A DNA stretch of 63,526 nt, the filler included, from Streblomastix strix (taxonomy: Eukaryota), in NCBI GenBank assembly GCA_008636045.1. It is 4 parts of 4 records of this genome, joined end to end, with 100 filler letters (N's around TTAATTAATTAA, not from the genome) between each part and the next. Parts side by side here need not be neighbours in the genome. Positions count along the whole stretch, not along the records: positions 1 to 15,819 come from SNRW01000930.1; 3 more parts are not named here. One strand, 5' to 3'. This document shows positions 1 to 57,464 of this stretch, piece after piece. A model generated the notes under the pieces. That model did no database searches. It was not told where the DNA came from and saw only the letters and a list, made by a program, of their open reading frames with translations. Every line of letters begins with the position of its first letter. Position 1 is the stretch's first letter. The translations under genes and the position numbers were made by a program.

Positions 1-1
1 A

Positions 2-442
2 TTTGTTGAAAATGATGATCCAACTAATAAAAGATAAATAGATCACAAAAATGGTATTAAGACTGATAATAGTATATAAAATTTATGCTAGATGAATAAT
101 AGTAGTAATTAGAGAAAAAATTCGAAACACAATGCTGATGTTATATATGAATATGATAATGAAATTCCTGATGATGCTATAACCATTAATGATTATGGAA
201 CACATAGATTTGAATTCTATTCCTATAGTTAAGATACAGATAAATTTTATTACTATAATGGTTTAAAATATAGAGTTTTACACATTAATGAAGTAAAACG
301 AAGTGGAATGTTATTTGATCGCGCTAATGATATTGATAATGATTTAACAAAAATATTCATAAATAAATTCAAAAGACTAAAAAAACATAATTAATTGAAT
401 CATCATTTTTGCTTCCTTACTATAAATTAAATGGCATTATGA
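2..442 (+). CDS. HNH endonuclease, C-terminal part (5' truncated, 3' end uncertain)
   Basis: With TAR=Q frame 2 reads FVENDDPTNKRQIDHKNGIKTDNSIQNL..., matching the phage-type DHxNGxKxDNxxxNL HNH motif; first in-frame TGA at 440-442. Confidence 0.75.
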
Positions 443-848
443 GAGTAATAACAACTTGATCGACAGAAAAATATACATTTTTATGCACTAGCTTATAATT
501 ATTTGTACAATTTTAGTAATACAGATAATACTATATTAGCAAAGGAGTCGATGAAGAAATTATTAGATATAGATTCAGATAAAAGAGTTTTTGAAGTTGT
601 GTATTATTATACTAGTTATTTGCTAACTGATGATTATAATAAATTATGGGATAAATATAAGAGTTGGGTTGAGGATGAAAATCCTGAATTCTATAAATTT
701 ATCATTGCATAAAAGGTTCATGATTAATAAATTTCTTAAGCGAGATTTGATAAAATCAATCAAAGACCTTATAGTGACTCAAGATCATAATCAATTAAAC
801 CATAAATTTAAGTATATTAACCTATTAAATTAATTAACCAATTTTGAA
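431..848 (+). pseudogene. Hypothetical element protein, disrupted
   Basis: TAAATG start at 431; MAL*EQQQLDRQKNIHFYALAYNYLYNF...LWDKYKSWVEDENPEFYKFIIAQK; TGA at codon 4; reading decays after ~850. Confidence 0.45.
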
Positions 849-1898
849 GATTCCAACTATTTAACCTTTGATACCTAAATCAAAAGTAAAAAAACAAAGC
901 AAATCAAAAACTTTTGTTAATGAACTTAATAAATTAAAGTAATAATTAATAGAAATAATTGGTGAATAGGAGTAATTCAATTTAGATAATGATATAGATT
1001 CAAACATAACAATAACTGCAATGCTTTAATAAGAAAATATTAATACGAAACAATCATTTTATAATACTATTCTGAATCATAAGTTCAATTAATCAGTTCA
1101 AAGTATTGGATTATAAAACATAAACTATTAAATTTGTAGATTAATTTCTTAGCTAATGGTATGACTAATATATCTTATAATTTAGTGAGAGATATCCATA
1201 GAAAATTTATGCTTTATAGTCTAAACCAAAGAAATTTAATAAGCTCTAGAATGATAACTTATTCCAAAAAATAACATAAAATCAATTCCCTTTCAAATCA
1301 AAGTATGATGTCATTCGAGTAGTTAATGAAAAAGACCAATGCCCTCACATTGATAAACACAGTGATTTGCCCACGTCAGAAACATCCAATATTATGACGA
1401 ATTGCTGACATATGAAAAATGAATAGATTATCTAGAACCGAAAATCAAAGAATAAATTGATATTAATAAAGAAATACGTATAAAATAATAAATTATAACA
1501 TTTAGGAATATCATTAGTAATGAAAAATAATTGATATGATTTACGATATGCATTTATGATAAAAAAAATTGGTATGATTTATGATTTGCGTTAATAAAAA
1601 AATAATTTATCTGATTTCTGAGACGCACAAATAAATAGGATTTAGGCAATGTTTCGGGCATTTGTCTTTCTCATTAACTACTCGCACAGAGCTAGCTTAT
1701 TTATCTAATTTTCCCACGATTAGTAATCTGTCCGATTAAGTTTTCATTAACGAAGTTGAAATAATGGCATCGACTAGCTGGTCGATGAGTGAAATACGTT
1801 ATTTGATGAAATTTATGGTGATAAAAGTTATTGATTGGACTGATGGTTATGTCGAATTAAGCGGGGCAATGAAAAAGATTAATGGTGCGGATGAATGA

Positions 1899-2064
1899 GA
1901 TGAATTATCTACCTGCACGAGGACTATTCTAAGACAATTCTTGAATTAGTGTTCTGACATTGAGATATATATTAATTTATCCATCTGCACGGGGTGCTCT
2001 ACCTGCACGGGGTAAGTTGATAAACTATTTTGATATCTGTCATTAAAAATTATTGCCATAAATT
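1899..2064 (+). repeat. ~166-bp repeat block copy 1 (three CTGCACG(G/A)GG cores)
   Basis: Aligns by eye along its length with 2132-2297, e.g. shared AAGACAATTCTTGAATTAGTGTTCTGAC and ACCTGCACGGGGTAAGTTGATAAACTATTTTGA. Confidence 0.92.
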
Positions 2065-2131
2065 TGAATCATGAAGAAATCGATTGAATTATCTTAAATG
2101 AAAAATAAGACAGATAAGACAAGACAAGACA

Positions 2132-2297
2132 GATGAATTATCAACCTGCACGGGGACTATCTTAAGACAATTCTTGAATTAGTGTTCTGACGTGGAGATA
2201 TACATTAATTTATCCACCTGCACGGGGTGCACGACCTGCACGGGGTAAGTTGATAAACTATTTTGAGATCTGCCATTGACAATTATTGCCATAAATT
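2132..2297 (+). repeat. ~166-bp repeat block copy 2 (direct)
   Basis: Direct copy of 1899-2064, ending ~50 bp before the primase-helicase ATG. Confidence 0.92.
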
Positions 2298-2348
2298 AAG
2301 TAAAAATTATTTTTCTCATGCTATTTCAATATTTTATCCGAAAGTAAA

Positions 2349-5126
2349 ATGGCAACAGAAGAATTTTCAAATGACAAATCAAACCAACAAACAAACGTGA
2401 AATGTGAAACACTTGAGAAAGGACCGAAATGTAAATATACACGCAAATCGAAAACAGATGAGAAAGCAAAAGCTATGATTGATCAAATGATTAATGAACA
2501 GACGAATGAACAGACGAATGAATTGACTATTGAACCCACTAACAGCAAAGATGCTGGCATAAATGCTATTAAGTAGATTATTGAAGAGAAATATGACCAA
2601 CACATAAGTGAATTATGTAATTAACATGGAGGAACTGATAAAGAAAAAGATGAAAGAAGCTATTTAATATATCGATTAGAAAAAAATAGAGAAGATAATA
2701 TATTTGAAGAAGTATTGCAACCGTTAGTGGAATTATATAGGTAAGAATAAGATTCAAAAACAATAATTGAACGCGTCAAAAATGCTGTGATTAACAAAGT
2801 AAACTATACAAAAATAGGTTAATATGATGGTAAAAAAAATTAATAAATAACAGGCAAATTAATTGATTCATCATTAATGGATGAAGATAATCTATGTGTA
2901 GTTGATATAGACATTCATAAGGATAAATCAATAAAAGAGATTGATTAACTAGGATAAAATATAATTGATTCACTTCCACAAAATGTAGGTTTAGTTAAGA
3001 CTGCTCATGGAGGATTACATATCTATTGCAATAGGAATTTCTATCTATTACCTTCAAACTGTAATGTAAAAGTAGCTGTAACAGATAGTTTTGATATTGA
3101 TGTATTTGCTAAAATGATTAAATATAGAATTGAAAATGGATAAGAGACAAAAGAGAGAGTATAGAATCGGGTAGTTACTCCTAATACTTCTATTCGAGAA
3201 ACTAAAAGTAATTAAAGAGTTACACTCAAATATGAAGCAGTTAATGATTGGGAAAATGCATCTCATTTAGCGAGCTTGAGAGAGATATTTGACAAATGGA
3301 ATATAGATATTGAGATGTCATATAAAGATTACGCATAATAGTAACATTATAGAATATATGGAGTGTAAATCAATGATGACGGTGCAATTGAATAAATAAA
3401 TGATGAACTTGCATAAGCATGTGTTGATGGATTGAAGAATCTTGAAATACATAACTATCTTTAGCCGATTAATATGAAAGGGTCTCTTCTAAGTATATTC
3501 TGTGGATTATATGGAATTACTAATGAATCGATTAGAACCGAAGGAATGAAGAATATACGCTAATTCAATAAGCAAACCGCAAACGCAGATAAAAACTATG
3601 GATAAGCTTCATCTAATGGTGAACACAAACGAAATCCATGGATCCTTACAAAAATCTTAAGATACCATAATAAAGACTATTATGAATAAAAAATTAAACC
3701 ATTATTGAAAAAGAATTATGAAGTGAAAAAATAATCGAAAATAGTTGATATGGTGAAATAAATTGAGAAGCATGAGATTGACCTAAAAGATGTGTTCACA
3801 TTAACAGATGTATCTAGTAAAGCACTAAATGGATAATGTTAAAATTAATTAGAATTAGTTGCAGAAGATTTGTTTAAAATAATAAAGGTTGTACCTTGCT
3901 AAAACGGATGGTGTTTTGTCATTAAAGAATATGATTGTTTTCATAATACTAATACAATTCATTATAAGAATAAGACTGCTATCTATGATTAATTACGTTC
4001 GATAAGATTATGGTAAGATGGGAAAAAGAATTTAACTGCAATTGATGCTTTAGAATAATATCATTCACTATTCGAGAAGGTAGGTATAAGATTCATTAGT
4101 TAAAACCCTAAAATTTTCAGTGTATTTTAAGGATATAAGTACTTACAATTAGAAGAAGTGAACTATACAAAAATGGAAGGATTCCTAGGATTAGTGAAAG
4201 AGATTATCTCTGCAAATGATGAATTGATTTAAGAATATTTACTAAATTGGTTTGCTTTTATTGTGTAGAATGCAAGTAAGAAAACTGAAACAGCTATTAT
4301 ACTTCAAAGAATATAAGGTATTGGAAAGAATGTATTCACTAACTTATTATGAGAACTGTTAGCAAGATATTCATCGAAGAACATAACTGATATAGATGAT
4401 TTTGTTGGAAAGTTTAATGCAACTATCGAAAACAAGATGTTGGCAATTGCTGATGAAAAGAATAATTTTGGAGAATCGAGAATGTCTAGTATGGATGCGT
4501 TGAAGTCAATAATTACTGAATATTCATTTGATATTAATGAAAAATATATTCCAAAGCATGAAGTTGAGAATGTAATGAATATGATACTTGTAACCAATAA
4601 TATCTTTCCAATAAAAATAGAGAATAATGATAGACGTTATGTTGTATGCAAATGCAATTAAGTTCATCGAGAGTATCTAACTTAATTCCCTAATCTTTGT
4701 AATAGCTTTGATGAAGATTTTTATAACAACTTATTCACATTCTTTATGACTAGGGATATTTCATAATTTAATCCAAGAAACATTTCAATGACATAAGCTA
4801 AGAAAGATATAATAAGAGCATCAAGGTCAAATGTTGATGACATTATAATTGATCATTTCAAGTAGTTCAAAGATGGTGTAATCATATCACAAGTCGAGCT
4901 ATGGAAACTTCAAGATATGATACTAAAAAATTATCAATTAACGATAAGTAATATATGTAGCCAAGTATGGAGATCAACTAATGGATAAAGAAAGAGATTC
5001 TATAAAATGAAAGAAGAAATGGTTATGATATATGAGAACATGCTAGATGAAGATGCTGATGAGAAAGAAGCTGAAGCATAAACAGCTGAACAAGAGAGGT
5101 AAGAAGAAGGTAATGAATACATATGA
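2349..5126 (+). pseudogene. AEP (Prim-Pol) primase fused to D5-like superfamily 3 helicase, ~925 codons, one internal TGA
   Basis: Single frame with TAR=Q. AEP motifs VVDID (2898-2912) and KTAHGGLHIY (~2997-3026); Walker A QRIQGIGKN (4305-4331, first G replaced by R); Walker B AIADE; sensor ILVTNN; DRRY arginine finger; in-frame TGA at 4350-4352. Confidence 0.88.
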
Positions 5127-5193
5127 ATAAAAGTGATCGTGCAGTTAAATGAATGAATTTATTTTTTGTGCTAGAATCATAGAGTAATGAATC

Positions 5194-5283
5194 AATTTGT
5201 CCATCTGCACGGGGTGCACGGCCTGCACGGGGTAACTTGATAAACTATTTTAGGTGCTGCCATAAGCCATTAATGCCGTAATT
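5194..5283 (+). repeat. Repeat block copy 3 (partial, direct)
   Basis: AATTTGTCCATCTGCACGGGGTGCACGGCCTGCACGGGGTAACTTGATAAACTATTTT matches the 3' half of copies 1 and 2. Confidence 0.88.
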
Positions 5284-5417
5284 GAAATATTAAGAGTTAG
5301 TACCATTCTGAAGTGAGTAATATTTTATAAGATGAACGATTTTGATTATTGCATGTAATCATCGGATCATATTTATTTTTCCTTATGATTCTGCTAATAT
5401 GGTGTTGAATTAAATAT

Positions 5418-5567
5418 AATTACGGCAATATGGCAAATTGCAGCATCTCAAATTATTTATCAACTTACCCCGTGCAGGCCGTGTACCCCGTGCAGATGGA
5501 CAAATTAGTGCATATCTCCATGTCAGAACACTAATTCAAGAATTATCTTAAAATTGTCCCCTTGCAG
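5418..5567 (-). repeat. Repeat block copy 4 (inverted, near full length)
   Basis: TATCAACTTACCCCGTGCAGGCCGTGTACCCCGTGCAGATGGACAAATT...GTCAGAACACTAATTCAAGAATT is the reverse complement of copies 1-3. Confidence 0.9.
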
Positions 5568-5987
5568 TGCATGTGTACTCGAAATATTTGATATAATATC
5601 TCATTAGCACATACTTGATTAACGCACATCATTAACGTAAAAATAAATCAGAGCTACCGACCGACCAACTATTATTTTTGCCAATTTTAGGGGGTCCAAC
5701 CCTGCACACCTGCACACATGAATAATTCACTTCATTTGCCCACTTCGCTAAAGCACATCATTAATGCAAAAAAAATCACATTCACTAGTTATATCGATCA
5801 ATTATATCACTAATTTAAAGTAAATCCTAAACGTTAGTTATGATAGTTTTCTAAAGATGCCGAATCAACAGTAGTTACAAATCGTTAGCATATGCACAGA
5901 ATTCCTATCGCTGAATTCTATATTTTTATTGTGCATGAGATCGTTACTCTGCGGCAATGCGTTCGGCTTCGCATGCTCACAATCAAA

Positions 5988-6839
5988 TCACACTCTAATC
6001 ATATTCAGTATTTTAATAATTAATTTACTAGTATTATCATCTAAATTTAATGTAGAATATTGTTGCTATGTTCGTTAATTATCATTGATAATCTCATGAA
6101 ATCTATTCAAATCTATCTCTTATATCTCTACTCTGTAGATACCTGCATCACCACTCTTGATCTATCGTTTCTTCATTGTTTCTTCAAAACTGATGCTCTT
6201 GAACATTTCATACATTAATTGTTTTATTTACATATTATATCGTTATGCAGTTGATGGAGAATCAAATGAGTCGGTTAATTAGTATATATTTTCTAGAAAC
6301 AATAATATTCCCTTTCTACCATTCCCATCTTCATGTGGATAAATGCGTTCGTATAATAGATAACACGCAAACATAACCATAACCATATTTGATTGATCAT
6401 ACTCATTAGCGAAGTCCACCAGTTCTTAAAGCTCAATTGGATCGATATTTTTATGTTGGATTCCAACGTTAGCTGCAGAGATTATTTTTGATTTATTCTT
6501 ATCACTAACATATACACTACAATGCCTAAATGTCTCTCTTTTGGTTAGTGCTTAGTATAGTTCATCGATCTATGGCACTTTCCTATTCTTAAGGTACTCT
6601 ATTGCTTCATTAATGTTATCCTTTGGTAATATATCATATTCAATACAGTTAGAATCCATAATATTTTTATACATTAATCTATCTGCTTCAATCGTATCTA
6701 TTACCTTACCTATTTAATCACATCCATCATCATTCAACAATATTGTAAATTCTTTAATTTTTATCGAATATTTTGATATCATTTTAATAATAAATGAAAT
6801 GCTATTCAATATAGTTATTAGAACATCATTAACGTTCAT
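5988..6839 (-). CDS. Fic/DOC-domain protein (~283 aa), divergent active site
   Basis: Open frame with TAR=Q; ...LYERIYPHEDGNGRKGILLFLE (motif 6341-6306) versus the Fic consensus HPFxDGNGRxxR. Confidence 0.78.
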
Positions 6840-6972
6840 CACTATTGAAAACATTGTCTTGTTTCTTATTGCTGCATCTGCATATAACACCATAACCAAA
6901 GAAAAAGAAAAGACTTCAATAAATTTACTATTTTATTCATGATTATCAACTAGTAATTTTTGGTAGGAATAA

Positions 6973-7566
6973 ATGTCTTTGAAACGATCAGTATCACCAT
7001 CTGAAAAAATTTATTAAAACGAACCAATGTCTCCTCGTTAATCAGTACCGATTATTCCTGCAATAGTTGAAGTAGATTCACCATTCGAAAAGGAATAAGA
7101 TAAAGTGTCTGTATAATCTGTTCGTTCAAGAAGAAGATCATCTATACTTGAAGAAATAATTGTTCCAGATCCATCAATATGTCGATGGCTACTTGATATA
7201 ATTAGTGAAGATGAACATATGACTAATGAACCTGCACATTTCATATTATCCGAACATTAATTAATAAGAGTAATTGCATATATATTTTATGTAGTGGAAA
7301 ACGAAGTTATCCTTAATACTGAAGATGAAGGATGTTGTGGAAAATTTATGCACGATGGCACTAGAATATTAAGAGAAATTACAATTAATAATGTTATTAT
7401 ACTTACTCTAGATATCGATAAAGTCAATCTTCTCAGAGATTCATATAAAATATGCTTATAAAAAGTGAGAAAAATAACTAGTATATTAGATCTTGGAGAT
7501 ATCTCATCAAATTTAATGTCTGCAACAAGTAAAGGATTAATGGCAGTTCTATCTCAGATTTATTGA
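6973..7566 (+). CDS. Hypothetical element protein (197 aa)
   Basis: TAAATG start, open to TGA 7564-7566 with TAR=Q (MSLKRSVSPSEK...EDEGCCGKF...VLSQIY); no domain recognised. Confidence 0.65.
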
Positions 7567-7593
7567 TTGATCTATATTATTTTTGGTAATTAA

Positions 7594-10110
7594 ATGGCTG
7601 ATACAGACTTACACTCTTTAGATGTACTCTTAATTTACAATGAAATTCTGTATGGAAACGTTCGTCATAATACTATTGGCTTGATTGAGTAAGTTACAAA
7701 TATTAACAATCAAATTAATAATATAAATAATGCTCCTGCACCTGATGTATATACTAAACCTGAAGCAAATGAAATATTTGATACAAAAGCTGATAAATCA
7801 GAGACATATTCTAAGACAGATACTGATACATTATTAGATGCAAAAGCAGATAAAACCGACACTTATACGAAAACTGAAACCGATACTCTACTCGATGCAA
7901 AAGCAGATAATACTGACAATTATATGAAAACTGAAACCGATACTCTACTCGATGATAATGCAAATAAAACTGAATTAATTGACTTATATTCCAAGACAGA
8001 AGACTACGCACTCTTATTATTGAAAGCAAATGTTGCTGATTTGACCAATTATGTAGATTTAACTTCTGTACAAACAATAACAGGATAAAAATAAATCAGT
8101 ATGATTAATATTTCAAGCAAATCGAAATTGAGTAAAAATGACGCTTCTATTCATCTTGCAGGTAGAGGAGATATGTTAGTAAGTTCATTAGTAACTTAAT
8201 CATAATTATAAGAAGTTGGAGATATTGCTACTGGAAAGCCAAAAATATGTATTCTCTACGTAAGATGAGTTGAATGACTGGATGGCTGTTCAAGATAATG
8301 TAGCAAAATTGGTAATTGGAGATAATTTATATATTGCTGATAAGGAAGTTACTGATTATTGGTGGGATGGAACTGATTTAAAAGTGTTAGAAACAGAATT
8401 ACCAGATATGAGTAATGTTATAACAACCCAACGAACAGCTACTGGAGGAGGTAATGCAATAACTGATATATCAATTGATGGTAATGTACTAACACCAGCG
8501 AAAAATAAAAATTTTGTAGATACAGATTATGATCAAAGTATTAGTGGTTAAAAGACATTTAATACAACAATACATTCAGTTGGAATCACAGATTCAATAT
8601 ATGATAATACATTTGTTATTTGTGCGTGTGGAGGAGTTAGATCAATTGCAGATATTTAAAATACCTCATATTCCAGATCAGAGGATGATGCACTTTTATT
8701 ATTGAAAGCTGATAAATCAACAACATATACCAAGACTGAAGATGATTCACTTTTACTATTGAAAGTTGATAAGACATAACTGATTGATTCATACTCTAAA
8801 GGTGAGACATATAATCTCTTAAGTAATAAAGCAGATACTGGAGTTTCCTATACGAAAGGTGAAGATGATGCACTCTTATTATTGAAAGCTGATAAATCAA
8901 CAACATATACCAAGACAGAACCTGATCAATTAATATCTAAGATTGATGTCGGAGATGTTGATTTGACTTATTATTACAATAAAACAAAAACAGATGAATT
9001 ATTAGGAGAGAAAGCTGACGCAATCGAACTATATAATTATATTACATTAGGTACTTTATAAACAATTAATGCAAATAAGACATTCAATAAGGCTTGTAGA
9101 TTCACAAGTACAATAGATTGAATGTCAACAATTACTGGATCATCATTTATCAAATCAGGAGCAGATAATGCAGTTGTATTACTTGGAGCAGGTGGTACTA
9201 AACCAATTACAGAATTTGGGGGAAGTGTTGATGATTCGAATTATGTGAAGAAAACAGGATAAGCAACATAAAATATCGCAGGAAATTTAATAAGATCAGA
9301 TAGTGAAGATTCTTTTGATTATTTATAACCTAGATAATATGCTACAAAATATAGTATCGATGGTGCTTACGTTAAGAAAACAGGAAAAGAAACATAATCA
9401 ATCGAAGGAAATTTAAAAAGAAGCGGCAGTGAAATATTATTTGAAAATCTTTACCCATTCCAATATATAATCAAATAGGATGCAAAGTACGGATTTGTAT
9501 AAAAAGAAGGATAACAGGTATAAGAAATCGAAGGAAAATTACGTAGAAAACAAGATGATAAAAAATCTGAAAATGGTGACTATTTAACAAAAGATGAGAT
9601 GGATAATAAATATGTAACACTTGGAGGAACTTAAACGATTACTGGTATAAAAACATTTATTATATCAGTAACTGCACCAACATTTGTAAAATATAGCGGA
9701 ACTAATTAACAAGTACTATTGGCAGATGGAACTGTTTAACAATTATCTGAATTTGGAGGAGTGCAAGTGGAAGACATTACAAATTTAATTGTCAATTTAT
9801 ATTCAATTATTACATTGAATTATTTAAAACTTACTCGAATAGGTACTTTTTATATTTTAATGATGGAAATTCAACCAAAAACTTAATTCAATATCTCAGC
9901 ATAATTTATTATTTGTAGTATTGGAAATATCGGTACTGGCATATCTCCTCCAACGCCTCCAAGTACTACATATCTTATTTAGTTAGCAACGAAGCGAAGG
10001 ACATTAATATATTCGCACTCATATAGAGAAATTCGAATAACTGCGGATTCAACAGAAGCTTGGGGTGTTAATGATGATGTTGGCTTAAAAATTTAGTTGG
10101 ATGCTTTGAT
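7594..10110 (+). pseudogene. Tail-fibre/virion-fibre-like repeat protein, disrupted
   Basis: Tandem KADKxxTYxKxExDxLL repeats (~7785-8030, ~8665-9020), QTITGxK/QSISGQKTF/QTITGIKTF fibre motifs, three VxKxG..Q.I.G.L repeats; frameshift ~8245, TGA 9119-9121, probable frameshift ~10090. Confidence 0.75.
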
Positions 10111-10170
10111 AATAAGCACATTCATATTACCTATCAAATAAGTTTAATACTTTTATTTTTGAACTATGAA

Positions 10171-11031
10171 ATGAATTATGAAATAGGCAGTGTATACATA
10201 GATGAAGCATTATTAGAAGCTGCAGGACTATTAGAATTTCCAGAATGTTATGCGTATATTATCGAGAGCGATCAAGAGCCAGTTCCACTAGCATAACGAA
10301 TACCAATCAGAGAATAAACCTTACAAAAATAAGTGAAAGATAATGATGACATTCTCTTTAATACAAACGAATTGTTCATTCCTCCATTTTCAAATGCTCC
10401 TACAAAATTAGACTTAAGTTCATAGCTAGAACGATCTAGTTTCCTAGCATCATGTGGATCAGATCCATAATTAATTGTGTACGGTGATCGTGTTACATTA
10501 ACCGCGTCATATGAAACTTCTGGATTATTTCCCAATGGTTATTTATTCAAAAGTTATCCAGAAGAAGCGAGACCAAAAGCAGGAGATAAAGTGATTGCAT
10601 TAGTTGGAACAGATACTACGAATAAAAATAGTATATTTTGTTATATCGATTAGTATGGACCATTTATCATCAGTACATCAAAGATTCCTTCAAAAACTGG
10701 TCTCTTTATAAACGTAACTAATTATAAAAAATATGAGTCATCTAATAAAATAAATTATGATGCAAATAATGATGGCATAGTAAATATAATGGATACTTGG
10801 CACGTCAATGGTAAAGGAACATTCGAAACATAATCTCATGTATATGATACTGTGAAAAAATAAACTGATTTAATTGCAACTGGATTGTTTGGAGATAATA
10901 AAGTAAATTATTTAAATAGTGATATAAAATTATAGGATGAATTAGCAATCTATTAAGCGGATAGAGCAGCATTCTTCATTAAAAATATAACTATAAATGC
11001 TTTAAATAAATCAAAAAACAAAAAACAATGA
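10171..11031 (+). CDS. Putative virion/receptor-binding protein with a dockerin/EF-hand-like loop (286 aa)
   Basis: Open with TAR=Q; LFKSYPEEARPK resembles the LP..xRP motif of fibre tip domains; DANNDGIVNIMD at 10759-10794. Confidence 0.55.
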
Positions 11032-12482
11032 ATGATTGTATCTAAAAAAATGTATTACTAAGCAGAATGTTTGAATAAATCTACAAAAAAATGCATTTAA
11101 TAAGAAAAAAATCAAAATTCTTGTTGTTAATCAAATAATACGAACATAAATCTAACTAATTCAGATAAAATTCTGAAACAAAGCAAATGTATGCAATGAG
11201 TGAATATATTAATTAGTCAATCTCTACAGTAAAAAACGACAAGTTGAACACATATTTAAATAGAAGTCGAATTAATTAGCCATATTTTTTGTTTACATGT
11301 ATTAGATACTTTTGAAATTACATTTGATATTTATTCATGATATAGAATCACATCTTAGGTAGCTTTTGGAGCAAATATCGTATATGATTTAACTATTCTT
11401 TTTTAATCGATCAAACTTTTTTAATATCTATAGTTTTGAATATATTGAAAAATTTAAGGGCAGCGTATATAATTTTATCAAGCAAAACATAAATCTAAAT
11501 TTAATATGCAAAATAATTAAAAATTCGAATTCCTATCAAATTATTTAACAATTTCTTTAACAAATCGTTTCTTTATTTTTTAACTGTAATTCTTTACTTA
11601 ATAAATATTGCTTGTTTGAGCAGATTATGAAATTAGTTTATGTAATACCAAATTTGTGAATCAATAATGTGAAACAAAACAAATGAATGATAAAGATTAA
11701 TGGAAGGAATTGAATTAAATATATGAGTATGATATATGAATATTATTAATGGATTTAATTAATAGAAGTAATCATGCAAATAATGAAGGTTTATTATAAA
11801 TTGAGACGGATTATACAATTAGAATAAATGAAGAATTATCCTCATCGTAATATTTAAAATGAAATAAACTAATTAAAACAAATTTTATACAAAAATTGAT
11901 GGAATAGAAATTAATATTTTTTAATCTCGGGCATTTTAAACTCTGCCGGTAGATACTGGTTAATAGTTTCGGGAAAATTATCCACTATTAATTATAGATT
12001 TAATTAATAAAATTATCCCTTCAAAAAAATAAAGATCTGAATTTTACAGCTATATTCTCTAAATACTTTAACACCAATATTTACAGATATTATCACGGTA
12101 AGGTATATTTTCAATGCTCTTAAATATTCAGCAGCCACATTTTAATTATCTTACATTATTAATATCTCCTTCGTCGTGAGTTTATAAAAAATCGTGCTAC
12201 TACACATAACATCGCTTACCATTTATGCATATGCTAATATTAATCAATAAAATTTTAATTGCTGTTGATTTTTCCACCTTCATTTATATCATTGACTTAA
12301 CCTGCGCATAATTCTACCGGCTTAAAATAATTTTTTAAAAATTATGTTTTTATTTGCTATCTTTCACTATTATCAATGTATTCCAACTATTTTTTATTTC
12401 AAAATATCACTTCTTTATTTTATTCAAATAAATTAGCAAAATCCTTATATTTTAACTTTATTTTTTTATATAAAACTTTAGA

Positions 12483-14747
12483 ATGATGAATAATAACGAA
12501 TTTAATATATAATCTGCTGGTTATTAAATTAATCCTGTTAGTTCTACTTTTCCTTCATCTTCTAATCCGTCTCTTTTTTCTAATTTTATTACTCCATAGC
12601 TCTTTGCAACAACCCCCGCTCAACTACAAAATCCACCACCTGTACTTTAAATTTCTTCGTAGGATATTCCTCAATACAGTTAGAAATATATAGTTGTTTA
12701 TGTGCCTGTTTTGCGCTTAGGGTAGGTAGCTCCATTTAATTCATCACCTCTTGTATAGACTCAATTTGCAAACTAAAACCTTTACTATCAAAATTAAGTA
12801 CCAAATTTTATTTAAAACACAAATAACTTTGGAGTTAATTAAGACTACTAAAATGGAATCAATGATTTAATGCATTTCATTGGAAATACAATATCTTCTC
12901 CATTTATACCTCAATAATAAGTATAATCATATTCTCCTCCTCCTTTATCAGCATCTGAACTCAATTACTATGATATTAATAAATATCCAAATAATACAAA
13001 TCCTTAATAGAAATACATTAGAAGACAATAAAATTAACTGTATATACCAACAAAATAGAAGGAAATACCAAGATCAATGAATTAACTGTTTGAACTATAG
13101 AGAGAAATTGAAATAATGAATATTATTGGAGACAAAATGAAGAAATTTGCTGAATTACATAAACTCATTATTGGAATGGATGAAAATGATATATAAGCTT
13201 CAATTAATCAGAACTTCTTCATTTGGCTGAAAGATCATTTCTTCTCTTCTTAATATATTATTCAGCTTGAAATAATAACAATGCTCCAAGATATCATCTA
13301 TAGAGGAGAATAAATATCACCAAGTAAGAAAAAGAGCATATTCTTCAGACCTTTGAATAGATCAAGGTTTTTGTGGGGTATTCATATTCTAATAAATAAA
13401 TAAGCTGAAATACAAGAAAAGAGCAAAGATTAATAATATGAAGATTCTGAATTTATGCAAAAATGTTTGGATGTATTGTTTGGTGTAATGAGAGAGAGAT
13501 ATATGGTAGAAGAATAGCTTCGTGAAATATGTGGAAAAGTACTTATTCATTGTCTGAACAAACTTATAACATATTTAATTGAAGCAAGTAAGACATTGAA
13601 GACTCAACCACACTTAGGAATAATGACAAGTAATAGATTTAGTGATGAAATGAGAAGAGGAATATAAACTCTTCATACACTCAGTTGTGCAACTTAGAAT
13701 AAAATTACACAGAACTTCTTAGTTGAAAAATTTAGAATTCATGAAGCAATTACGCCTCTACTACATATTAATTGTGATTATCTTGCTTGCGAACATCGTA
13801 TTTAATTGCCTTTCTCTTTAAAATTAGAGAAATTACAATTAGCTATTCTTGATGCTGTTTCATCACTTTGTGAGAAAGATGAAGTAATTTAGGCATATCT
13901 TGTATAGGAAGTTCGACTCATTCCTCATCTGAGTTAAATTCTTATAACTTTTGCCTCTTAATTGTGTCCCAACTTTAAATAATCTAAATTTGAAAACTTT
14001 CAATCATCTCCACAATCAATATAATCTCCCTTATAATAACCAGAAACAATTGAATAATTAAAATAAAGTGAAACATCAGATAAATCAAATACATCGCATA
14101 CAAATCCAATTTAACATTCAACATCGACATAATCTCCATAAAGCCAAAATTCTTCTTAGCCTTCAGGAACTGCTGCAATACGAATAACATAATAATTGTA
14201 TTATGCTGTACTTGAACTTCTTGAATATATTCTTGATGGTAATAGATTATCTGCTGAAGGGATTTGCTTTGAGCCAAGTCTTGTTTCAGCATTTGCAGCT
14301 CTTTCTCAAGTTCAGAGGAAGTAGTCAAATTAATTTATATTGGATGAGTAAGTTGCAGTTGAAATCAGAATTAGAAGTATTTGGTATTTGAGATAAGTCT
14401 AGATGAATGGAGGAGACAAAGTTTAGAGATCTTTAGTAAAGGATGGTATATATACAAAACGAGTTCTTACTGATGCTATTTCAAGCAGTGGAGGAAATAG
14501 TGAGGATTGTGTTGATGTTATCAAAGAATCATTATTTGGGTTGACTTAGCTAATTATGACACTTCGAGAAGGGAACAGCATTTGTTAAGGATAGACTACT
14601 CTCCTTGAACTCGTAACTGAACAGCTAGAAGAAGAAGGTGCAGTTCAGGAAGTTGATGCATAAGTGTTTTGTACTAAAGAATTAATTACTTCAGGTGTAC
14701 GTGCCACAGCAATACAGACGCAAACTAGACTAATATTTTATATTTGA
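12483..14747 (+). CDS. ARM/helical-repeat-like protein of a lineage-expanded family (754 aa, intronless, Q/P-rich N-terminus)
   Basis: Uninterrupted frame with TAR=Q; shares PLLHINC..C..RI..P and C-terminal EQLEEEG..EV motifs with 61805-63515. Confidence 0.75.
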
Positions 14748-15468
14748 TAACTAGAAGGAAATAATCTTAGAGTTTTTCTTTGCTTTCTATCTTTTTTGTG
14801 ATAAGGATAATAAATTTTTAGCTATCAGAATATTTAGTTATTGATTTTGATATTGTTGATATAAAATTGACTATATATTTCTAACAACATTGTGCAAATG
14901 TGAGGATCTTGTGAAATAGAAACATGAATTTATGTGATTAAAATAATCTTGATCTCAATCTAGAATCAGCACTTATGTATTTTTTATTTGGATATCCTAA
15001 TATGATGTGAAATATATTTATTTGTCTTTCTTTAGCATAAATATCTATTTTCTGATTCAGAATCGTTCATTCTATTCACGAGCTTCGCACCGTTCATCCA
15101 ATATATAGATTGCAATTTGATATATCTTTTTATCTACTAGAAACCAATTCTAATATAATTTATACTTATTGAATAATATTTAACCACCATGGTGCAATAA
15201 TATAACACCGAAGAATATTTTTATTTAAACGCATATTGAGCATCATCCAGTTCTATTCTTAACATGGAATTGCAATTATTTTTTGTGTTTCCAATTTTCT
15301 GATCGAATATAGATGTCATAATACCAACAATAAAATAACCTATGATTAAATATCTGAAAACACTCAAAATACTTCGTATCATTCTTTTGAATAATTTACC
15401 AAACCAAATTGTACATATTATTTTAACATAATATGTAAATTAATATTATTTAATAATTATGATTTAGA

Positions 15469-15819
15469 ATGGACACTCAAGATTCAAACTTGGGTTAGGG
15501 AGTAAAACGTTCGGTAGTAAGAGAGCGAGTAAGACAGCGCGGACACGATATGATTTTTCTTGAACATGCTGATGATACAGACAGAACCCCACTAGAACCT
15601 GATATTATACCAGTTCCGCGACAAAGAGGAATCCCTGTGAGTTCACGCGGATAAAAAAAGAATGAAAAGCGTTAAACAGAATCAACAAACTCAACTAATA
15701 TTTCTCCATAATTCTAGACATATCCTGCTTAATAACCTGTTTATACTCCGCCATTTTAGTAACCTTATCCATCTCCTTATCCTGCAGTTTATCCACCTCC
15801 TTATGGAGCTTTATATCCT
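15469..15819 (+). CDS. Hypothetical P/Y/Q-rich protein, N-terminus (truncated by contig end)
   Basis: MDTQDSNLGQGVKRSVVRERVRQRGH...QPYPSPYPAVYPPPYGALYP, open up to the gap. Confidence 0.55.
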
Positions 15820-15919
15820 NNNNNNNNNNNNNNNNNNNNNNNNNNNNNNNNNNNNNNNNNNNNTTAATTAATTAANNNNNNNNNNNNNNNNNNNNNNNNN
15901 NNNNNNNNNNNNNNNNNNN
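15820..15919. other. Artificial contig linker (N44-TTAATTAATTAA-N44)
   Basis: The same 100-nt spacer occurs three times. Confidence 0.97.
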
Positions 15920-16080
15920 CACCCATTTATTTAATCTAATCATCTTCTAGATTTTATTTATAAAAGTAGAGTGAATTGAACATCCAAATTGTTAATAAAT
16001 AACAAATAACTCATTTATTATATTTATTATGATTTTTTTTTCTAAAAAGTTTTTTTTAAATCAACAACATTAATGCAAAG

Positions 16081-16350
16081 GAAGATTAATTTGGATATGA
16101 TGATGATGAAGATGATGAAGAAGGAATAGATAAAGAAGATGATAAAATGAAGTTGAATGTATTGAGACGTTTAAAATAAGAGAATGAAGCTGAGAAAGAT
16201 ATTGATGAAGATGAATAAAAGAAGAATAGATTAGATTAAATGTAGAAGGATATTAATTCTGATGATGATTCAAATGCAAGTAGTGAAGAAGAACAAGAAG
16301 ATGATGGGAATAAAACTTCATCAAAATAAAGAATGAAAAAGGACAAATGA
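16081..16350 (+). CDS. Acidic C-terminal exon of a gene truncated by contig start
   Basis: EDQFGYDDDEDDEEGIDKEDDKMKLNVLRRLKQENEAEK...MKKDK then TGA 16348-16350. Confidence 0.5.
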
Positions 16351-16651
16351 AAATCATTTTGTAATTAATAAAAATAAATTCATTCAAAAAATATGTAAAT
16401 ATCAAAATTTGATATTTTGGTTTATATTTATTCTCCAAGTGCATATGTTGTGCAAGTGAATTGAATAGCGAAACAGAAAAAGAAATCAAAATGATTGTGA
16501 AAGTGAGAAATAATTTCTTATATGTGAAATCAAATGAATATATAATCTTCCTTGCGATGTTGAATGATACGGAAAATAATATTCATTCATTAGTATATCA
16601 AATTATTTATTCCAATTGAATTTATTTTTCATTTGTTCTGTTTATATTATT

Positions 16652-17868: not shown

Positions 17869-20800
17869 ATGAGTTAGTCATTTAACGAGAAAACTAACTT
17901 TACAGATACAACTGACTCCAATTCTCTTTGGACTGCTGGCGAGTTGTAGAGAGAAGCAGGTAAATATTTTGATGGCGTTCTGAGTAGTAATTAATAGGAG
18001 GAAATTATTAATTTACTTATTCCTTTTGTCACTTCAAAGAAGGCTAAAGAGGAGGGAAAAAACGAATAATCCTAAGATTCTGGATTAAACACTCAGGAAA
18101 AGGATATTGAAACATTGAAAGTTAATTAATTAATTTCTGCCCTTGCCAAACTTCATTTTGAATAGGAATCCAAGTTGAAAAAATAGAACCCTTTTGATAG
18201 ACAATCGTCTTCATTAACTAATATCCGAAAACTTCAACCAACCAATAACATGTCATTGATACCCCGCTCTCCATTGATTGCTCTGCCTTCTCCAGCCTCT
18301 TCATTAATATCAAATGCAGATTTATTCAATTTATCAGTTACCTCTAATCATTTGATGAATCAGGCACCAAGTCCATCTCATTTATAGCTTTAATCAACTC
18401 CAATATCATTATCTTCTTTCCCTCTTTTGACAACTCCTATTGTTTAGTAAACAAGTGCTGATATAAGAGGATCAAATATTGACAATAATATAATAAAGAC
18501 TAATAAAAATATTGGATATAACCCATGTCTATAAGTATAATAACCAACTCTATCTTCAACGCCCCATAAATTGACTGTAGGACCAAAAGAGAATGTATAT
18601 AATTCTGCATTAGCATCAAAAGTACTTGCAGAGAAAGCTCTTCCTCAGCTTGCACATCCATTAGATTCATCATCTGACTTAGCATTAATTAGATCACTGC
18701 ATCCATATCCAATATCTACTAAATGGAAAGGTACTCTAGTGATGCAGAGTACAGTTGGTAGTGTTGCTGATAGAAATGGGAAATTGATGGAAGATGAATG
18801 TCTAGCCTGTTCTATTAATGGAGGAACAGGGAAGAGCGGATCCATTCGAAGTGTAGCAACTGTATTTGATGGTCATTCATACAACAACAAAGCTGGTAGA
18901 GATGTAGCTTCATTTGCAAGAGATAGAATGTGGTCTACAATTATAAGGAAACACATGACTATGGTTGAATCTGGAGAAGCACAAGGAGCTGAAATCAATT
19001 CAGGAAGATTGGGTGCATATCATCCTTAGTTATAAGAGAATACTTCAAAGTAATACATTAAGTTTATATCTGATTATAATGATGTACTCAAAGATGATGA
19101 ATTAGTAGTAGAGAAAGAAGTAGGGATATCAATGCAACATGCATTTGAGGAGATTGCAGAAGAAATGAGGACAATTGGAGCAGGTGATGCAGATTCCGAC
19201 AGTGACTACTTCATTCATGCAGGATGTACAGCATCTGCAGCTGCTGTTGTTGCTGCCCCAGACAGTTACAATGAGATTGGATAACCAACTGCACATCCAA
19301 TTGCATCTCTTAGATTGGAATCTTTCTTCTCAAAGGAGAAAGAGAGGAAGATGATTACTGATGCTGAGAAGAAGGAGTTAAAAGATTCTATTGGGAAAGA
19401 CAAGAAATAAGTGAGTGATATGGAATAGGATGAAGAAGATGATGATATCAATGAATATATAGTTGCTGGTACATATGGATTGGTTACAGCTAATATTGGA
19501 GATAGTGAGATATATATGTTCTCCTCATTACCTCCTTCAAACCCATAATAATCTGGATCAATTAAGAATAAGAGAGAATAAATAAAAGAAGACTAAGAAG
19601 ATACTCCAAGTAGTACTTATTCCCCATTTAATCTGCCATTAGAGTTATCATATGCACATAAAGCCACTGATCCAAGGGAGTAGAAGAGATGCTAAGATAG
19701 TGGTGGGATTGTGCAATCTTTTGATATGGAGTAATTTGGACCAATGAATTCACCCATGTAATTAAAAGCGATGGGATAATTGAGTGAGATGATGAACTAA
19801 ACAAGAGTGAATGGATTGGCTGTAACAAGAGCATTTGGAGATTATGGATCTAAATAGACAATTAAAGTACCTTATATCAGGATGATTAAATTGAGACCCC
19901 TATTTGAGGATCCAAGGAGTGTTGTATTAAATAGAAATAGTATATAGAATGAGAAGTTGGATAATATCAATAGCAATGGACAAGAAGTGACAGAATCAAT
20001 CAATTAATAATAATAATAATAACAAACAGATACATCATCATCATCTAAATAAGGATAAGATAAGTAATTTAAAGGGAAGAGACAACCACTTCCACAGTGG
20101 GTAGTACTCGCTAGTGATGGATTCTGGGATGTCATTAGTCCAGAATTATGCTCAGAGTTAATACCACGTATAATTGATTAGTATGCTGTAGTATAAAAGA
20201 GGTATGATACATTAAGAGATATTATGTTACTAAGTTCAGCATGTTAGAATGAAAGTGCATCTCTTATATCAGAGGTTAAGGAAGATGAAACACGACCACT
20301 GAAGAAATCAAGTAGTTAATAAGGAATGGCAACACTTACATAACAGCAGATAAAATAATTCACTTCAATATATAACAATGGATCAGTAGATGACTTCTCA
20401 TGTTCTAAAGATGGTCATACTCCCAATAAATAGACTGAAGAATAGAACACATCTCCAATTGACAAGAAGAAATAAGAATAATCTGATCTTGCTTCAACAT
20501 CCAAGACTTAGAGTGATCATCCTACTCTAAGGGCTCGCTTAAAGAAGGCATAAACAGCTTTGAACTATTCTTCATCATAATCTTAGATTAATTTAGAATC
20601 AAATTCGCAAACATCTTCATTTGAATAATTAATTGGTTATAAACCAGTTCCAGTTCCATAACAATATTTCTATGTATCTGCACAAGAAGCAGCAGTTGCT
20701 CTATTTGATGCAAAAGCTGCCAGTATTACAGCCTAAGAAATGGCTCAATTACTCTTATAAGCATCACTTGATGTATATAAATAGAAAGGACATACAAAGA

Positions 20801-21738
20801 TATTACCTGAAGCACCTCCTCCTTCTCATAAGGATAATGTATCTGTTGATGTTATTAAGATATCCTGGATTCCATTTGATGTTATAACTGAAGATCCGCA
20901 ACAGATTCCTCCTCATTTGTTACAATTGGGGAAATAAATATTTCCTTTTTATTCAACACAAAAAGGAATATAGCTCCCAGCAAGTAGATTCTAAAGCTCA
21001 GGTTCATAAGGATTCTTACCAAAAGCTGAGACTGATAATCCAACATCTTCATCTTTTTCTTAATCTTTTTCTTCTTTTTCTTCTTCATCATCTTCTTCTT
21101 CATCTTCTTCTTCATCTTCTTCATATTCTTCATCATCATCTTCTTCATCTTCTTCTTCATCATCTTCTTCATCTTCATCTTCTTCTTAATCAATAACTCA
21201 TTCTCTTTAAATTAACATTCCATCCACACAATAATAATAACCTACTATGTCACCTGGTCCATTGAATACTCCATAAGCAGATAAGAAAGACAAATAAATA
21301 AAAGGATCAAATACAAATAAGGAAAAGAGTAAACATAAAGAGAAGGAGGAATTGGAAGATAAATCAGATTCACCTGAAAAGAATAGAAAAATAAAAGAAA
21401 AGGAAAAAGATAAGGATAAAGAAAAAGATAAAGAAAAAGAGAAATCAAAAGATAAGGAGAAAGATAAAGATAAAGATAAAGATAAAGATAAGGATAAAGA
21501 TAAATTAAAAGACAAAACAAAAGATAAGGAAAAAGAAAAAGATTAAAAAGATTCTAAAAAGAAAGAAGACAGTAAAAAGAAGGTAAATGAAGAAGGAGAT
21601 TAATAGAAAGATAAAATTGAATCTAAAACATCAGAAAAAAGTAAATCAGAAACAAAGAAGGACAAAGAGAAAAGTTCTGATCATAAGAAGGAGGGCAGTT
21701 TTGACCACAAAAGTAAAAAAGAAGATAAAGTGAAATGA
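17869..21738 (+). CDS. Protein phosphatase 2C (PPM family) with large low-complexity insertions, 1289 aa
   Basis: PPM motifs in order in one frame: RNGKLMEDE, VFDGHS, AGCTA, ANIGDS, GLAVTRAFGD, VLASDGFWD, KDNVSV; Ser-rich and (KD/KE)n tail. Confidence 0.92.
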
Positions 21739-31722: not shown

Positions 31723-31822
31723 NNNNNNNNNNNNNNNNNNNNNNNNNNNNNNNNNNNNNNNNNNNNTTAATTAATTAANNNNNNNNNNNNNNNNNNNNNN
31801 NNNNNNNNNNNNNNNNNNNNNN
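31723..31822. other. Artificial contig linker
   Basis: N-TTAATTAATTAA-N 100-nt spacer. Confidence 0.97.
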
Positions 31823-47624: not shown

Positions 47625-47724
47625 NNNNNNNNNNNNNNNNNNNNNNNNNNNNNNNNNNNNNNNNNNNNTTAATTAATTAANNNNNNNNNNNNNNNNNNNN
47701 NNNNNNNNNNNNNNNNNNNNNNNN
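47625..47724. other. Artificial contig linker
   Basis: N-TTAATTAATTAA-N 100-nt spacer. Confidence 0.97.
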
Positions 47725-56100: not shown

Positions 56101-57464
56101 ATTAAGCTGTTGTTGACACGCACTGGGCACTTTCGCCAATGATGGAATTCAACTATGGGTTGCAGCATCATTATGTCCAAATATATAATAAAGGACAAAC
56201 AAAAACAAAGATGCTTTTATTGTGGAATTCAGTTGGTATTACATCGGGAAAGAGATCTTGGCAGGATGATTCTGGAAGATCACTCATTCAATCACTCACA
56301 TAAGCATTTGAAGATCAAAACACTGCTGATGCATTCTTCCAGATAGCGAGATTCATCCTTGGAACTCAAATAGATCTGATTCTAACTCCTAAAAATGAAA
56401 AATAAAAATATGGAGATAAATTGGAGATAAATTGTGTATTTGAAAATGGAGTTGAAGGAGGCGTTCATTTCTCTGAGGTTGAAAACGGATTAAAAGATCC
56501 TAAAGCGAATATTGGAATGGGAGGTCTGATGAAACTGAATTTGTACAATGATTCTTGGATATAGAAAGGAATCGCATAAAGATAATATACTTTAGAAACA
56601 GAATACAAATAAGGGAAGAATTTTGTCCCTGTAAAGAAACGTGCTTTGAGAATTGTACCTTTTACTTCACAGAAGTATTTTGGGAGACGAGATCCATTCA
56701 CTCTTGAATCAACAGGACCTGAAGGATACATTTCCTAATTCATTCAAAGAAAAGGACCCTGGGAATACACTAGTTATGAAATCAGTTGGACTGATAAGCT
56801 TCAATCTAGAATATAGACAAGGTAGGATGAAGGATTGCCTATGAAACTGTTCTATATAATAAAAGCTGAAAAAGCGACTGAATTGTATATCCAATTTATT
56901 ATGCTGCATTGCTCAGATTCAAGATATTGCCCAAAAGCTGAATTCTAAGTAGTGAAACTTGTTGGACCATAACTTGCGAATGAAGCAGCGATTGCAACTC
57001 GACTGATTGGAGCTGCTGATCGTAAATAATGGGAAAGAGATGTATATATAATATAATAATAATTATTATTAATAATAAAAGAATGATCTTATCTTTTTAT
57101 TATAATGTATATTTATTTAATCTATTTATAAAGGACAAAGTTCTATTTACACAAGACAAGTCTTTATCTGAAGAGATCATTTATTCTGAGTTATTTCCAC
57201 AATCTGGTGGATATGTATGAATAAATAAAAATATATTCACCAATTGAAATATTATTTAATTTATCCATTAATCTCAATTTCTCTTATATATTTGAACAGG
57301 AAAGAGACGGATGGATTCTCACACACTCTGGTTCTGGTAGATTGGATGACAGCAATGCATATTATGGTTTATGTGTAAGTGCGCTTCAGTTTGTAGATGA
57401 GCCTATCATTATTTCTGCTTTTGCTTGGTCGAATGCAGAAATTTAGTTGTACAGAGTTAAGTGA
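53160..57464 (+). CDS. Calpain-family cysteine protease (calpain-7/PalB-like) with low-complexity/coiled-coil N-terminus, one internal TGA
   Basis: Catalytic QGQVGDCSLIS (Q = TAA 54726-54728), NHGYAV, RIRNPHG; also WISLIEKGY, GTFWM, SWNP; two introns near the 3' end; in-frame TGA 54189-54191. Confidence 0.88.

Follow-up and report, generated by a model that had tools for sequence, protein, structure and literature searches.

A truncated, decayed copy of a many-copy element in Streblomastix strix, likely a Metamonada-group Polinton-like virus

Results and Discussion

Streblomastix strix harbors a many-copy element, likely a Polinton-like virus of the Metamonada group, and bases 1-10,983 of the DNA analyzed here are very probably one truncated and mutated copy of it; in other copies a capsid gene lies just past the right breakpoint. 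Streblomastix strix is a protist of the termite gut. The window, by which we mean the whole stretch of 63,526 nucleotides, is composed of four contigs and spacers, and bases 1-15,819 are a single S. strix contig in genetic code 6. The element sequence carries genes for an HNH endonuclease, an AEP-type primase with an NrS-1-like SF3 helicase, a Fic protein, a fibre and a receptor-binding protein (Table 1), several of which are broken, and this copy is likely dead. Neither end of the element is present: the left is cut at the contig start and the right at a breakpoint within the last gene, beyond which other copies continue. An earlier note had proposed an integrated, decaying dsDNA virus-like element over 1-11,031. 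Our analysis supports that reading, with the capsid gene located in other copies, but the element sequence stops at 10,983. The note's suggestion of a possibly uncharacterized lineage is not supported in its strong sense: the major capsid protein (MCP) is the one that Bellas et al. 2023 reported from S. strix and assigned to the Metamonada group. The linkage to this MCP in other copies makes the present sequence likely a decayed copy of that known virus and not a new lineage.

Genetic code, gene content and copy number

With translation table 11, merely five ORFs of at least 80 aa overlap positions 1-16,000, the longest of 114 aa, while table 6 recovers the ORFs that the earlier note had described as invisible in the standard code. 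ORF length alone is weak evidence for genes in code 6: six ORFs of at least 280 aa compare with a shuffle mean of 1.3 (maximum 5 in 100 shuffles), and 12 of at least 190 aa with a mean of 6.2 (maximum 12). It is homology that establishes the element genes. The replicase has 100 matches and the last ORF 119, every one of them an S. strix gene model; these models were predicted automatically, and their introns are probably false. TAA and TAG make up 50-86% of glutamine codons in eight element ORFs and 62-76% in three other long ORFs of the window.

Summed depth is 1,414-253,597 across 1-11,088 versus 19-69 beyond, indicating many copies. Depth in the HNH-replicase half (1,414-16,407) is well under that in most of the structural part, and the replicase found here may therefore be missing from many copies that carry the capsid. 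The seven or more tightly packed ORFs of the earlier note correspond to fewer genes: a single stop divides the one replicase gene, and the three fibre ORFs belong to one broken gene. Nor are genes tightly packed in 443-2348 and 5127-5987, which consist of decayed or repeat DNA. The claimed HNH, primase-helicase, Fic and fibre genes all have domain matches in Pfam or PHROG, that of Fic being weak.

Table 1. Features of the element copy and its flank (window coordinates).
Position	Strand	Feature	Evidence
2..442	+	HNH endonuclease gene, 5' end lost at contig start	Pfam HNH_3 E 9.6e-8, above Pfam cut-off
443..1315	+	Decayed coding fragments, high-copy like the element	Fragments in three frames; depth
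1316..1684	.	369-bp piece between 29-nt inverted repeats (93%)	Repeat search
1898..2297	+	Two direct copies of the element repeat (167 nt, 92%), each with a triplet of 9-bp units	Repeat search
2349..5126	+	AEP-type primase-polymerase fused to NrS-1-like SF3 helicase, single gene	DUF5906 E 2e-8; PHROG primases
5178..5567	.	Opposed repeat pair behind replicase, candidate replication origin	Triplets 5205-5231 (+), 5469-5495 (-)
5988..6941	-	Fic-domain gene, start uncertain	Pfam Fic E 0.005 (below cut-off); phrog_5978 E 1e-7
6973..7566	+	197-aa ORF, high-copy	Depth
7594..10162	+	One fibre gene, ~850 codons, 19-21-aa repeats	phrog_5004, tail-fibre phrog_10305, BppL_N
10171..10983	+	Receptor-binding protein gene, 5' part only, truncated	119 S. 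strix homologs; predicted phage/virophage fibre-head domain
10983..10984	.	Junction of element with low-copy flank, a breakpoint distinct from the element's natural end	Depth drop and contigs running on
12483..14747	+	Long single-copy ORF in flank, likely host gene	Depth 19-35; 71% of Gln codons TAA/TAG

The C-terminal part of the HNH protein resembles a small gene adjoining a related replicase at locus L012 (35% over 48 aa, E 3e-10). The fragments at 443-1315 gave no convincing Pfam or PHROG match. No integrase, either tyrosine recombinase or rve, was found within the window, and the fragments at 443-1408 match neither family. The piece at 1316-1684, at which no target-site duplication was seen, is possibly a MITE or a rearranged part of the element.

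Link to the capsid module

Relatives of the last gene either adjoin the S. strix MCP reported by Bellas et al. 2023 or occur with it in a single gene model. When neighbors were counted as tags within 3 on contigs of at least 5 kb, the last-ORF family and the MCP were neighbors 10 times, versus 1.1 +/- 1.0 in 218 shifted controls (maximum 5), and nine of these pairs sit on equal-sized contigs. Gene models P0158, P0194 and P0203 fuse the last-ORF family to capsid sequence. P0158 is 76% identical to the last ORF of the window over 152 aa and 53% identical over 200 aa to P0284, which is EZS28_003037, a confirmed MCP in the consulted part of the Bellas et al. 2023 listing (PMC10120064). Four further models (P0303, P0319, P0328 and P0330) connect the C-terminal part of the family to the MCP, and P0306 connects the fibre repeats to it. 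The best 120 of 214 MCP-search matches are all from S. strix; at least three of eight MCP tags taken from the Bellas et al. supplement are among the matches listed.

The order in other copies is fibre, receptor-binding protein, small amphipathic protein and MCP, an arrangement not found in the literature searched. The capsid gene thus lies outside the fragment, as the earlier note had anticipated. The amphipathic protein gene sits just before it, past the breakpoint and outside the window; its product has a basic amphipathic N-terminal helix with a hydrophobic moment of 0.55-0.61, versus at most 0.48 in the MCP. In this helix and in its small size it may resemble adenovirus protein VI-type membrane-lytic peptides.

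Support for linking the replicase to the capsid module is only moderate, and weak by count. Replicase and MCP are neighbors four times versus 1.2 +/- 1.1 (5% of shifts reach 4) or 1.9 +/- 1.4 (14%), and replicase and last-ORF family once versus 0.9. The replicase shares equal-sized contigs with the MCP in two cases and with the last-ORF family in one. Gene model P0010, which adjoins an MCP, clusters with the replicase of the window in a tree built by a quick method.

Attachment and accessory genes

The last ORF is predicted to encode a receptor-binding protein with a fibre-head domain. Modelled residues 77-187 of its relative P0102 resemble gp15 of Listeria phage PSA (Z 11.2, rmsd 2.7, 104 aligned), Zav_19 of the Zamilon virophage (Z 8.8, rmsd 3.0, 106 aligned) and adenovirus knobs (Z 4.6-7.5). 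The predicted fold is thus like the heads of siphophages, Zamilon and adenoviruses, but identity to the best matches is only ~10-16% and the rest of the protein is modelled with low confidence; folding the last ORF from its sequence alone reached only pLDDT 33. A penton assignment considered for this ORF is not supported by its confident domain, a predicted fibre head, and the remainder of the model gave no assignment. Phage-type receptor-binding heads in such an element were not found in the literature searched.

The fibre gene carries a frameshift near 8244, an in-frame stop codon at 9119-9121 and probably a second frameshift near 10,089, and it has indels relative to other copies; P0216 aligns through the stop. 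Alignment of the Fic gene to solved Fic proteins gave a best E of 0.055. Other residues occupy the positions of the catalytic His and the second Arg, so the Fic protein of this copy is likely inactive, judging by its sequence. The ORF at 6973-7566 has no Pfam, PHROG or convincing PDB match.

The replicase and its repeats

A Polinton-like virus requires a replication gene, either pPolB or a primase-helicase, and here AEP-type motifs are present together with an NrS-1-like SF3 helicase. Primase-helicases are listed as replication genes of Polinton-like endogenous viruses in the consulted part of PMC10120064. The helicase aligns with the NrS-1 structure 6k9c at E 8e-27 and 1e-32, the primase motifs only weakly with pRN1 ORF904 (E 0.07), and the best phage matches show 24-26% identity covering <40% of the protein. 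The gene is interrupted at 4350-4352, just past Walker A, by what is the single stop in one-frame alignments to all three homologs tried. Gene models P0023 and P0090 extend past the replicase into 5751-5990, in support of its tie to the rest of the element. An ORF beside a related helicase at locus L013 resembles an rve integrase by eye; Pfam, PHROG and PDB searches with it were blank.

An unlikely alternative is that the replicase and its bracketing repeats (~2146-5567), perhaps with the HNH gene, form a separate mobile cassette that enters or swaps among capsid-bearing elements. Inverted arms of 118 nt (89%) flank the replicase, but they lack a target-site duplication and no transposase was found; moreover, the repeat occurs four times, three of them in one orientation. 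The unequal depth of the element halves would fit a cassette, as would P0083, in which sequence like 1316-1402 sits behind the replicase instead of in front, and a preprint which, in the part consulted, describes repeat-bracketed replicases in such viruses and proposes their mobility. Yet two other copies run into the same sequence past the bracket, and L012 has no clear bracket. Sixteen of 20 relatives looked up are on contigs <5 kb, although this is expected of any many-copy element. A circular cassette suggested by a joint from 5270 to 2332 was rejected as unproven; repeat likeness can explain the joint.

We favor reading the repeats as part of the virus-like element, in which those at 5178-5567 may be a replication origin because their layout resembles that of SaPI origins. 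The opposed iterons lie directly 3' of the helicase gene, with three 9-bp units on each side and the first 78 nt past the stop. According to the consulted part of PMC9371898, SaPI origins consist of opposed iterons located immediately 3' of rep, and NrS-1 is structurally closest to PriRep5. The element thus shares with phage NrS-1 and SaPI PriRep replicons a homologous helicase (E 1e-32) and opposed iterons behind the replicase, but differs in its eukaryotic host and code, in units of 9 bp instead of 5-6, and in two further triplets upstream of the replicase. Unlike in SaPI-type origins, the central region is not more A+T-rich than its surroundings, with a spacer GC of 0.283 (inner part 0.264) versus 0.29 for the element. 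Neither an internal origin of this type for Polinton-like viruses nor opposed 9-bp triplets behind a replicase were found in the literature searched. Eleven metagenome loci matching the repeat motif were rejected as relatives, all having 49-70% GC and no protein match; in L010, the only locus examined over its whole length, the motif belongs to a coding repeat within a bacterial protease gene.

On a broader and tentative reading, the S. strix virus would replicate in the manner of a bacterial satellite: an NrS-1/SaPI-type primase-helicase would load itself at opposed 9-bp iterons immediately 3' of its own gene, the iterons would be specific to subfamilies, replicase and origin would be swappable, and the capsid would belong to a still unplaced lineage.

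Relation to known elements

Membership of the Metamonada group was judged by an MMPC_40 MCP, a double jelly roll, a replication gene, an A32-like ATPase, a penton, an integrase, TIR/TSD and a length of 15-30 kb. The MMPC_40 MCP is supplied by other copies and lies outside the window. Its double-jelly-roll fold comes from Table S3 of Bellas et al. (Foldseek to Sputnik 3j26, E 2.6e-12; consulted part of PMC10120064), while our profile search of PDB sequences with 42 MCP rows gave no match. No capsid, packaging ATPase, penton, integrase or terminus was found within the window, no A32-like ATPase in the window or the stray parts of 338 gene models, and no pPolB, rve integrase or adenain protease, the marks of a Maverick/Polinton in the strict sense, in the 11 kb; the unseen part may encode them.

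We consider it very unlikely that the family has become a replicative transposon of non-viral kind, one which never forms particles and keeps capsid and fibre genes as relics. That no ATPase or penton was seen and that many gene models are fragmentary would agree with this. However, there are many full-length MCP models (~560-570 aa), and an alignment of 42 MCP rows has 157 positions with conservation of at least 90%, which fits selection on the capsid. Pattern scans of viral contig collections with the replicase, the MCP and the repeat motif gave no relatives, which would also suit a transposon, but such scans have low sensitivity, particularly for code-6 DNA, to which the MCP patterns are blind because they are rich in Gln.

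In the parts of PMC10120064 consulted, 820 MCPs are listed for the S. strix assembly, and host, genetic code and the capsid protein of linked copies are those of the Metamonada-group elements (MMPC_40). With the family's presence in S. strix already published, our locus is one decayed copy among hundreds. The same parts treat S. strix by its MCP and make no mention of Fic, fibre, receptor-binding heads, amphipathic protein or repeats; we found no account of S. strix Metamonada-group gene content in the literature searched. The Mavericks/Polintons of Trichomonas vaginalis have an MCP in the same cluster (~28-37% identity in the supplement rows consulted), but encode a protein-primed PolB, whereas the present fragment has an NrS-1-like primase-helicase and no PolB. 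A 2026 preprint, in the part consulted, still leaves the Metamonada group unplaced among Polinton-like viruses.

Junction and flank

At 10983/10984 depth drops from tens of thousands to 24, and past 10,983 contigs from all three sequencing runs, of which X1 is possibly the source of the assembly itself, continue with one common sequence. No partner repeat was found for the right edge of the element, both ends being absent from this copy. The junction, which the earlier note had wanted confirmed with reads, is crossed without differences by a contig of flank-like depth 24, but with only 29 letters on the element side against a mapping rule of 31. This short overlap, the high repetition of the family and the lack of a single read-derived piece covering the whole stretch would suit an assembly mosaic of several copies joined to the flank by chance. 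We nevertheless find a mosaic improbable, given the depth and identity of the junction contig, an exactly matching 211-nt piece at 9337-9547 with depth 18.7, and the agreement of independent gene models on gene order.

As the window consists of four contigs and spacers, the flank is limited to 10,984-15,819. Its long ORF, described earlier as an ordinary host gene, has single-copy depth but no family match, and is therefore likely, not demonstrably, a host gene.

A bacterial prophage or plasmid of the protist's symbionts can practically be discounted: domain matches do fall in phage families and phage structures, but the genes are readable only in code 6 and not in the bacterial code, the named homologs are from S. 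strix, the phage matches of the replicase are distant and partial, and the linked capsid is a eukaryotic-virus MCP.

Proposed life cycle and implications

Replication of an intact element would fall to the primase-polymerase-helicase that it encodes. This enzyme may load onto the opposed 9-bp repeats located 3' of its gene, and the chains would then be extended either by host polymerases or by the element's own primase domain. The DNA would be packed in double-jelly-roll capsids equipped with receptor-binding heads and fibres; during entry, the amphipathic protein may breach a membrane. Enzymes for integration and packaging are presumably encoded in the unseen part of the element.

These findings add anatomy to an unplaced capsid lineage, namely its gene order, its replicase type, its attachment proteins and a likely entry peptide. 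With the opposed repeats, there is a concrete, testable candidate for the start of replication in Polinton-like viruses without a protein-primed polymerase. If true, the satellite-like reading would place a defined origin inside the genome of a Polinton-like virus and would offer a mechanism by which replicases are swapped across these viruses.

Contig layout and genetic code

The window consists of four AT-rich pieces, each about 15.8 kb long, with identical spacers separating one from the next; since these are size-sorted contigs, adjacency across the spacers carries no meaning. The replicase ORF, which encodes an AEP-type primase fused to an NrS-1-like SF3 helicase, is 100% identical to Streblomastix strix gene model EZS28_005908 from a 15,819-bp contig. 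Because the first piece is this one contig, the element is cut off where the contig begins, and its flank is 10,984-15,819 only. TAA and TAG are read as glutamine in S. strix (Bellas et al. 2023, PMC10120064), and the ORFs described in the earlier note indeed appear in translation table 6, while table 11 gives five ORFs of at least 80 aa in positions 1-16,000. These two codons account for 50-86% of glutamine codons in the eight element ORFs tested and for 62-76% in three other long ORFs of the window. Host-type genes for a PP2C phosphatase (E 1e-9) and a calpain (E 7e-29) were found on other contigs.

Features of the window and of two related metagenome contigs
Feature	Sequence	Position (strand)	Remark
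Element	window	1-10,983	
Coding fragments	window	443-1315	
369-bp piece	window	1316-1684	29-nt inverted ends
Element repeat	window	1898-2064, 2131-2297, 5178-5270	inverted at 5430-5567
Replicase	window	2349-5126 (+)	
Last ORF	window	10171-10983 (+)	truncated receptor-binding protein gene, predicted fibre-head domain
Ca-binding-like loop	window	10738-10790	in last ORF, after fibre-head domain
N-TTAATTAATTAA-N spacers	window	15820-15919, 31723-31822, 47625-47724	identical to each other
PP2C phosphatase and calpain	window	17869-21738 and 54195-57086	
Small gene and full related replicase	L012	305-637 (-) and 674-3262 (+)	replicase in standard code
17-nt tandem repeat at start; related helicase beside rve-like ORF	L013	1-136 and 2598-4004	

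Gene content and decay of the element

The domains named in the earlier note were recovered in part: HNH_3 and DUF5906 score above Pfam cut-offs and Fic falls below its cut-off. A PHROG search adds primase and tail-fibre families to the element genes. The decay proposed for the element is evident in several genes, in addition to coding fragments upstream of the replicase. The replicase is a single gene carrying one in-frame stop, as indicated by all three homologs tried. The three fibre ORFs are one broken gene: other copies differ from it by small indels near 8244 and 10,089, and a homolog aligns through the stop at 9119. The Fic motif, with positions taken from a PDB alignment, has other residues in place of the catalytic His and the second Arg. 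Sequence similar to the 369-bp piece is found behind the replicase in copy P0083.

Copy number and right edge

Contigs from four sequencing runs, representing two samples at most, were aligned to the element-bearing contig. Summed depth in run X1 was 1,414-253,597 over positions 1-11,088 versus 19-69 beyond, which is a contrast only and not a copy number. Contigs departing from the window at 10,982-10,983 (nine in X1, two in X2, four in X3) share one common sequence. This sequence matches the next residues of longer last-ORF homologs, so the element edge at 10,983 is a gene-internal break. A single X1 contig (1,130 nt, depth 24, no differences) spans 10,955 into the flank; it has only 29 letters on the element side, below the rule of the tool, and X1 may be the source of the assembly itself. 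The element-flank junction is likely to be real.

Link to the capsid module

All 119 homologs of the last ORF are from S. strix, and three of their gene models (P0158, P0194 and P0203) continue into sequence of the S. strix major capsid protein (MCP). Using the capsid part of P0203 as query gave 214 matches; the best 120 of these 214 are all from S. strix and include three of eight MCP tags noted in the Bellas supplement (PMC10120064), namely EZS28_003037, 004006 and 004805. P0158 is 76% identical to the window's last ORF over 152 aa and 53% identical to EZS28_003037 over 200 aa. On contigs of at least 5 kb (49 last-ORF and 80 MCP models), members of the two families have tags at most three apart in 10 cases, versus 1.1 +/- 1.0 in 218 shifted controls, and nine neighbour pairs are on contigs of equal size; pairs from contigs below 2 kb were left out as chance. 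Both lines of evidence support the earlier placement of the capsid gene outside this fragment.

A small basic protein is encoded between the last-ORF family gene and the MCP gene in other copies, with an amphipathic N-terminal helix in three of four models tested. It may resemble adenovirus protein VI in its role. A similar helix has been proposed for mavirus (PMC6048507).

The link between replicase and capsid is weaker than that of the last ORF. On contigs of at least 10 kb (35 replicase, 41 MCP and 22 last-ORF models), two replicase-MCP pairs and one replicase-last-ORF pair were of equal contig size, and closeness by tag distance was marginal or nil. The link is supported by the two replicase-side MCPs, which share 85-88% and 80% identity with MCPs adjoining the nearest relatives of the last ORF in the window, by one MCP-adjacent replicase that clusters with the window's own, and by two other replicase models extending into sequence at 5751-5990. 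The lower depth of the replicase half of the element counts against it.

Relatives of the replicase and the receptor-binding protein

The helicase part matches phage NrS-1 (E 8e-27 and 1e-32); alignment of the N-terminal motifs with the pRN1 primase-polymerase is weak (E 0.07). A quick tree places 15 of 16 S. strix replicases on one starred branch, the other leaves being mostly environmental relatives; looking up 20 replicase relatives returned two clusters with generic names only. A Yaravirus preprint mentions a Streblomastix relative of its primase-polymerase. Among the replicase gene models, P0096 and P0073 show fusions with an OTU-like protease stretch (Pfam E 0.02) and with a source-named DDE-1 stretch, which may be neighbouring genes or prediction artefacts.

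On metagenome contig L012, the gene adjoining the replicase is small and homologous to the C-terminal portion of the window HNH. This short, AT-rich contig is filed under an archaeal MAG and is likely a misbinned gut-protist virus contig. L013, filed under a clostridial MAG, may represent the terminus of a polinton-like element; its rve integrase-like ORF, a likeness seen by eye, had no database match.

The structural model of P0102, a last-ORF homolog, is confident only at about residues 77-187 (mean pLDDT 45), and over this stretch the predicted fold matches receptor-binding heads of phages as well as the fibre-head protein of Zamilon. For the calcium-binding-like loop after this domain, last-ORF homologs show a weak dockerin match (E 0.08), and some carry an EF-hand name.

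Candidate replication origin

Every copy of the element repeat contains three GC-rich 9-bp units, whose core hexamer is found at 14 sites in the element (10,983 bp) and at one in the remaining 52,543 bp. The last two triplets start 78 nt past the replicase stop and point towards each other with 237 nt between them. In SaPIs, the origin consists of opposed iterons directly behind rep, and NrS-1 is nearest to the SaPI PriRep helicase (PMC9371898). By this analogy, the opposed triplets behind the replicase could tentatively be a replication origin, which we consider possible rather than probable, although the spacer between them is not unusually AT-rich. Three-residue periodic tails end four other gene models (P0070, P0083, P0084 and P0090), an indirect hint of 9-bp triplets of other sequence behind those replicases. 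Alternatively, replicase and repeats could form a mobile replicase cassette instead of an origin layout, as proposed in a preprint (10.64898/2026.10.13.758929); however, no target-site duplication was seen for such a cassette. Our literature search, with most subscription papers outside its coverage, returned nothing on a polinton-like origin of replication with an iteron and little on a Streblomastix polinton or virus capsid.

Relation to published elements

The S. strix assembly has 820 recorded MCPs of the Metamonada group in PMC10120064, and the gene order may already be in the gene maps of that paper. With the MCP family thus published for this organism, the idea of a possibly uncharacterised lineage, taken in its strong sense, is not upheld. 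Metamonada elements are described as still ungrouped, with frequent switching of replication modules (preprint 10.64898/2026.06.19.733378), and Trichomonas vaginalis Mavericks/Polintons encode protein-primed PolB (PMC3671162, PMC11296320). The element is real and is likely an integrated, dead copy of a published Polinton-like endogenous virus family. This copy yields useful anatomy and one testable idea on the replication origin.
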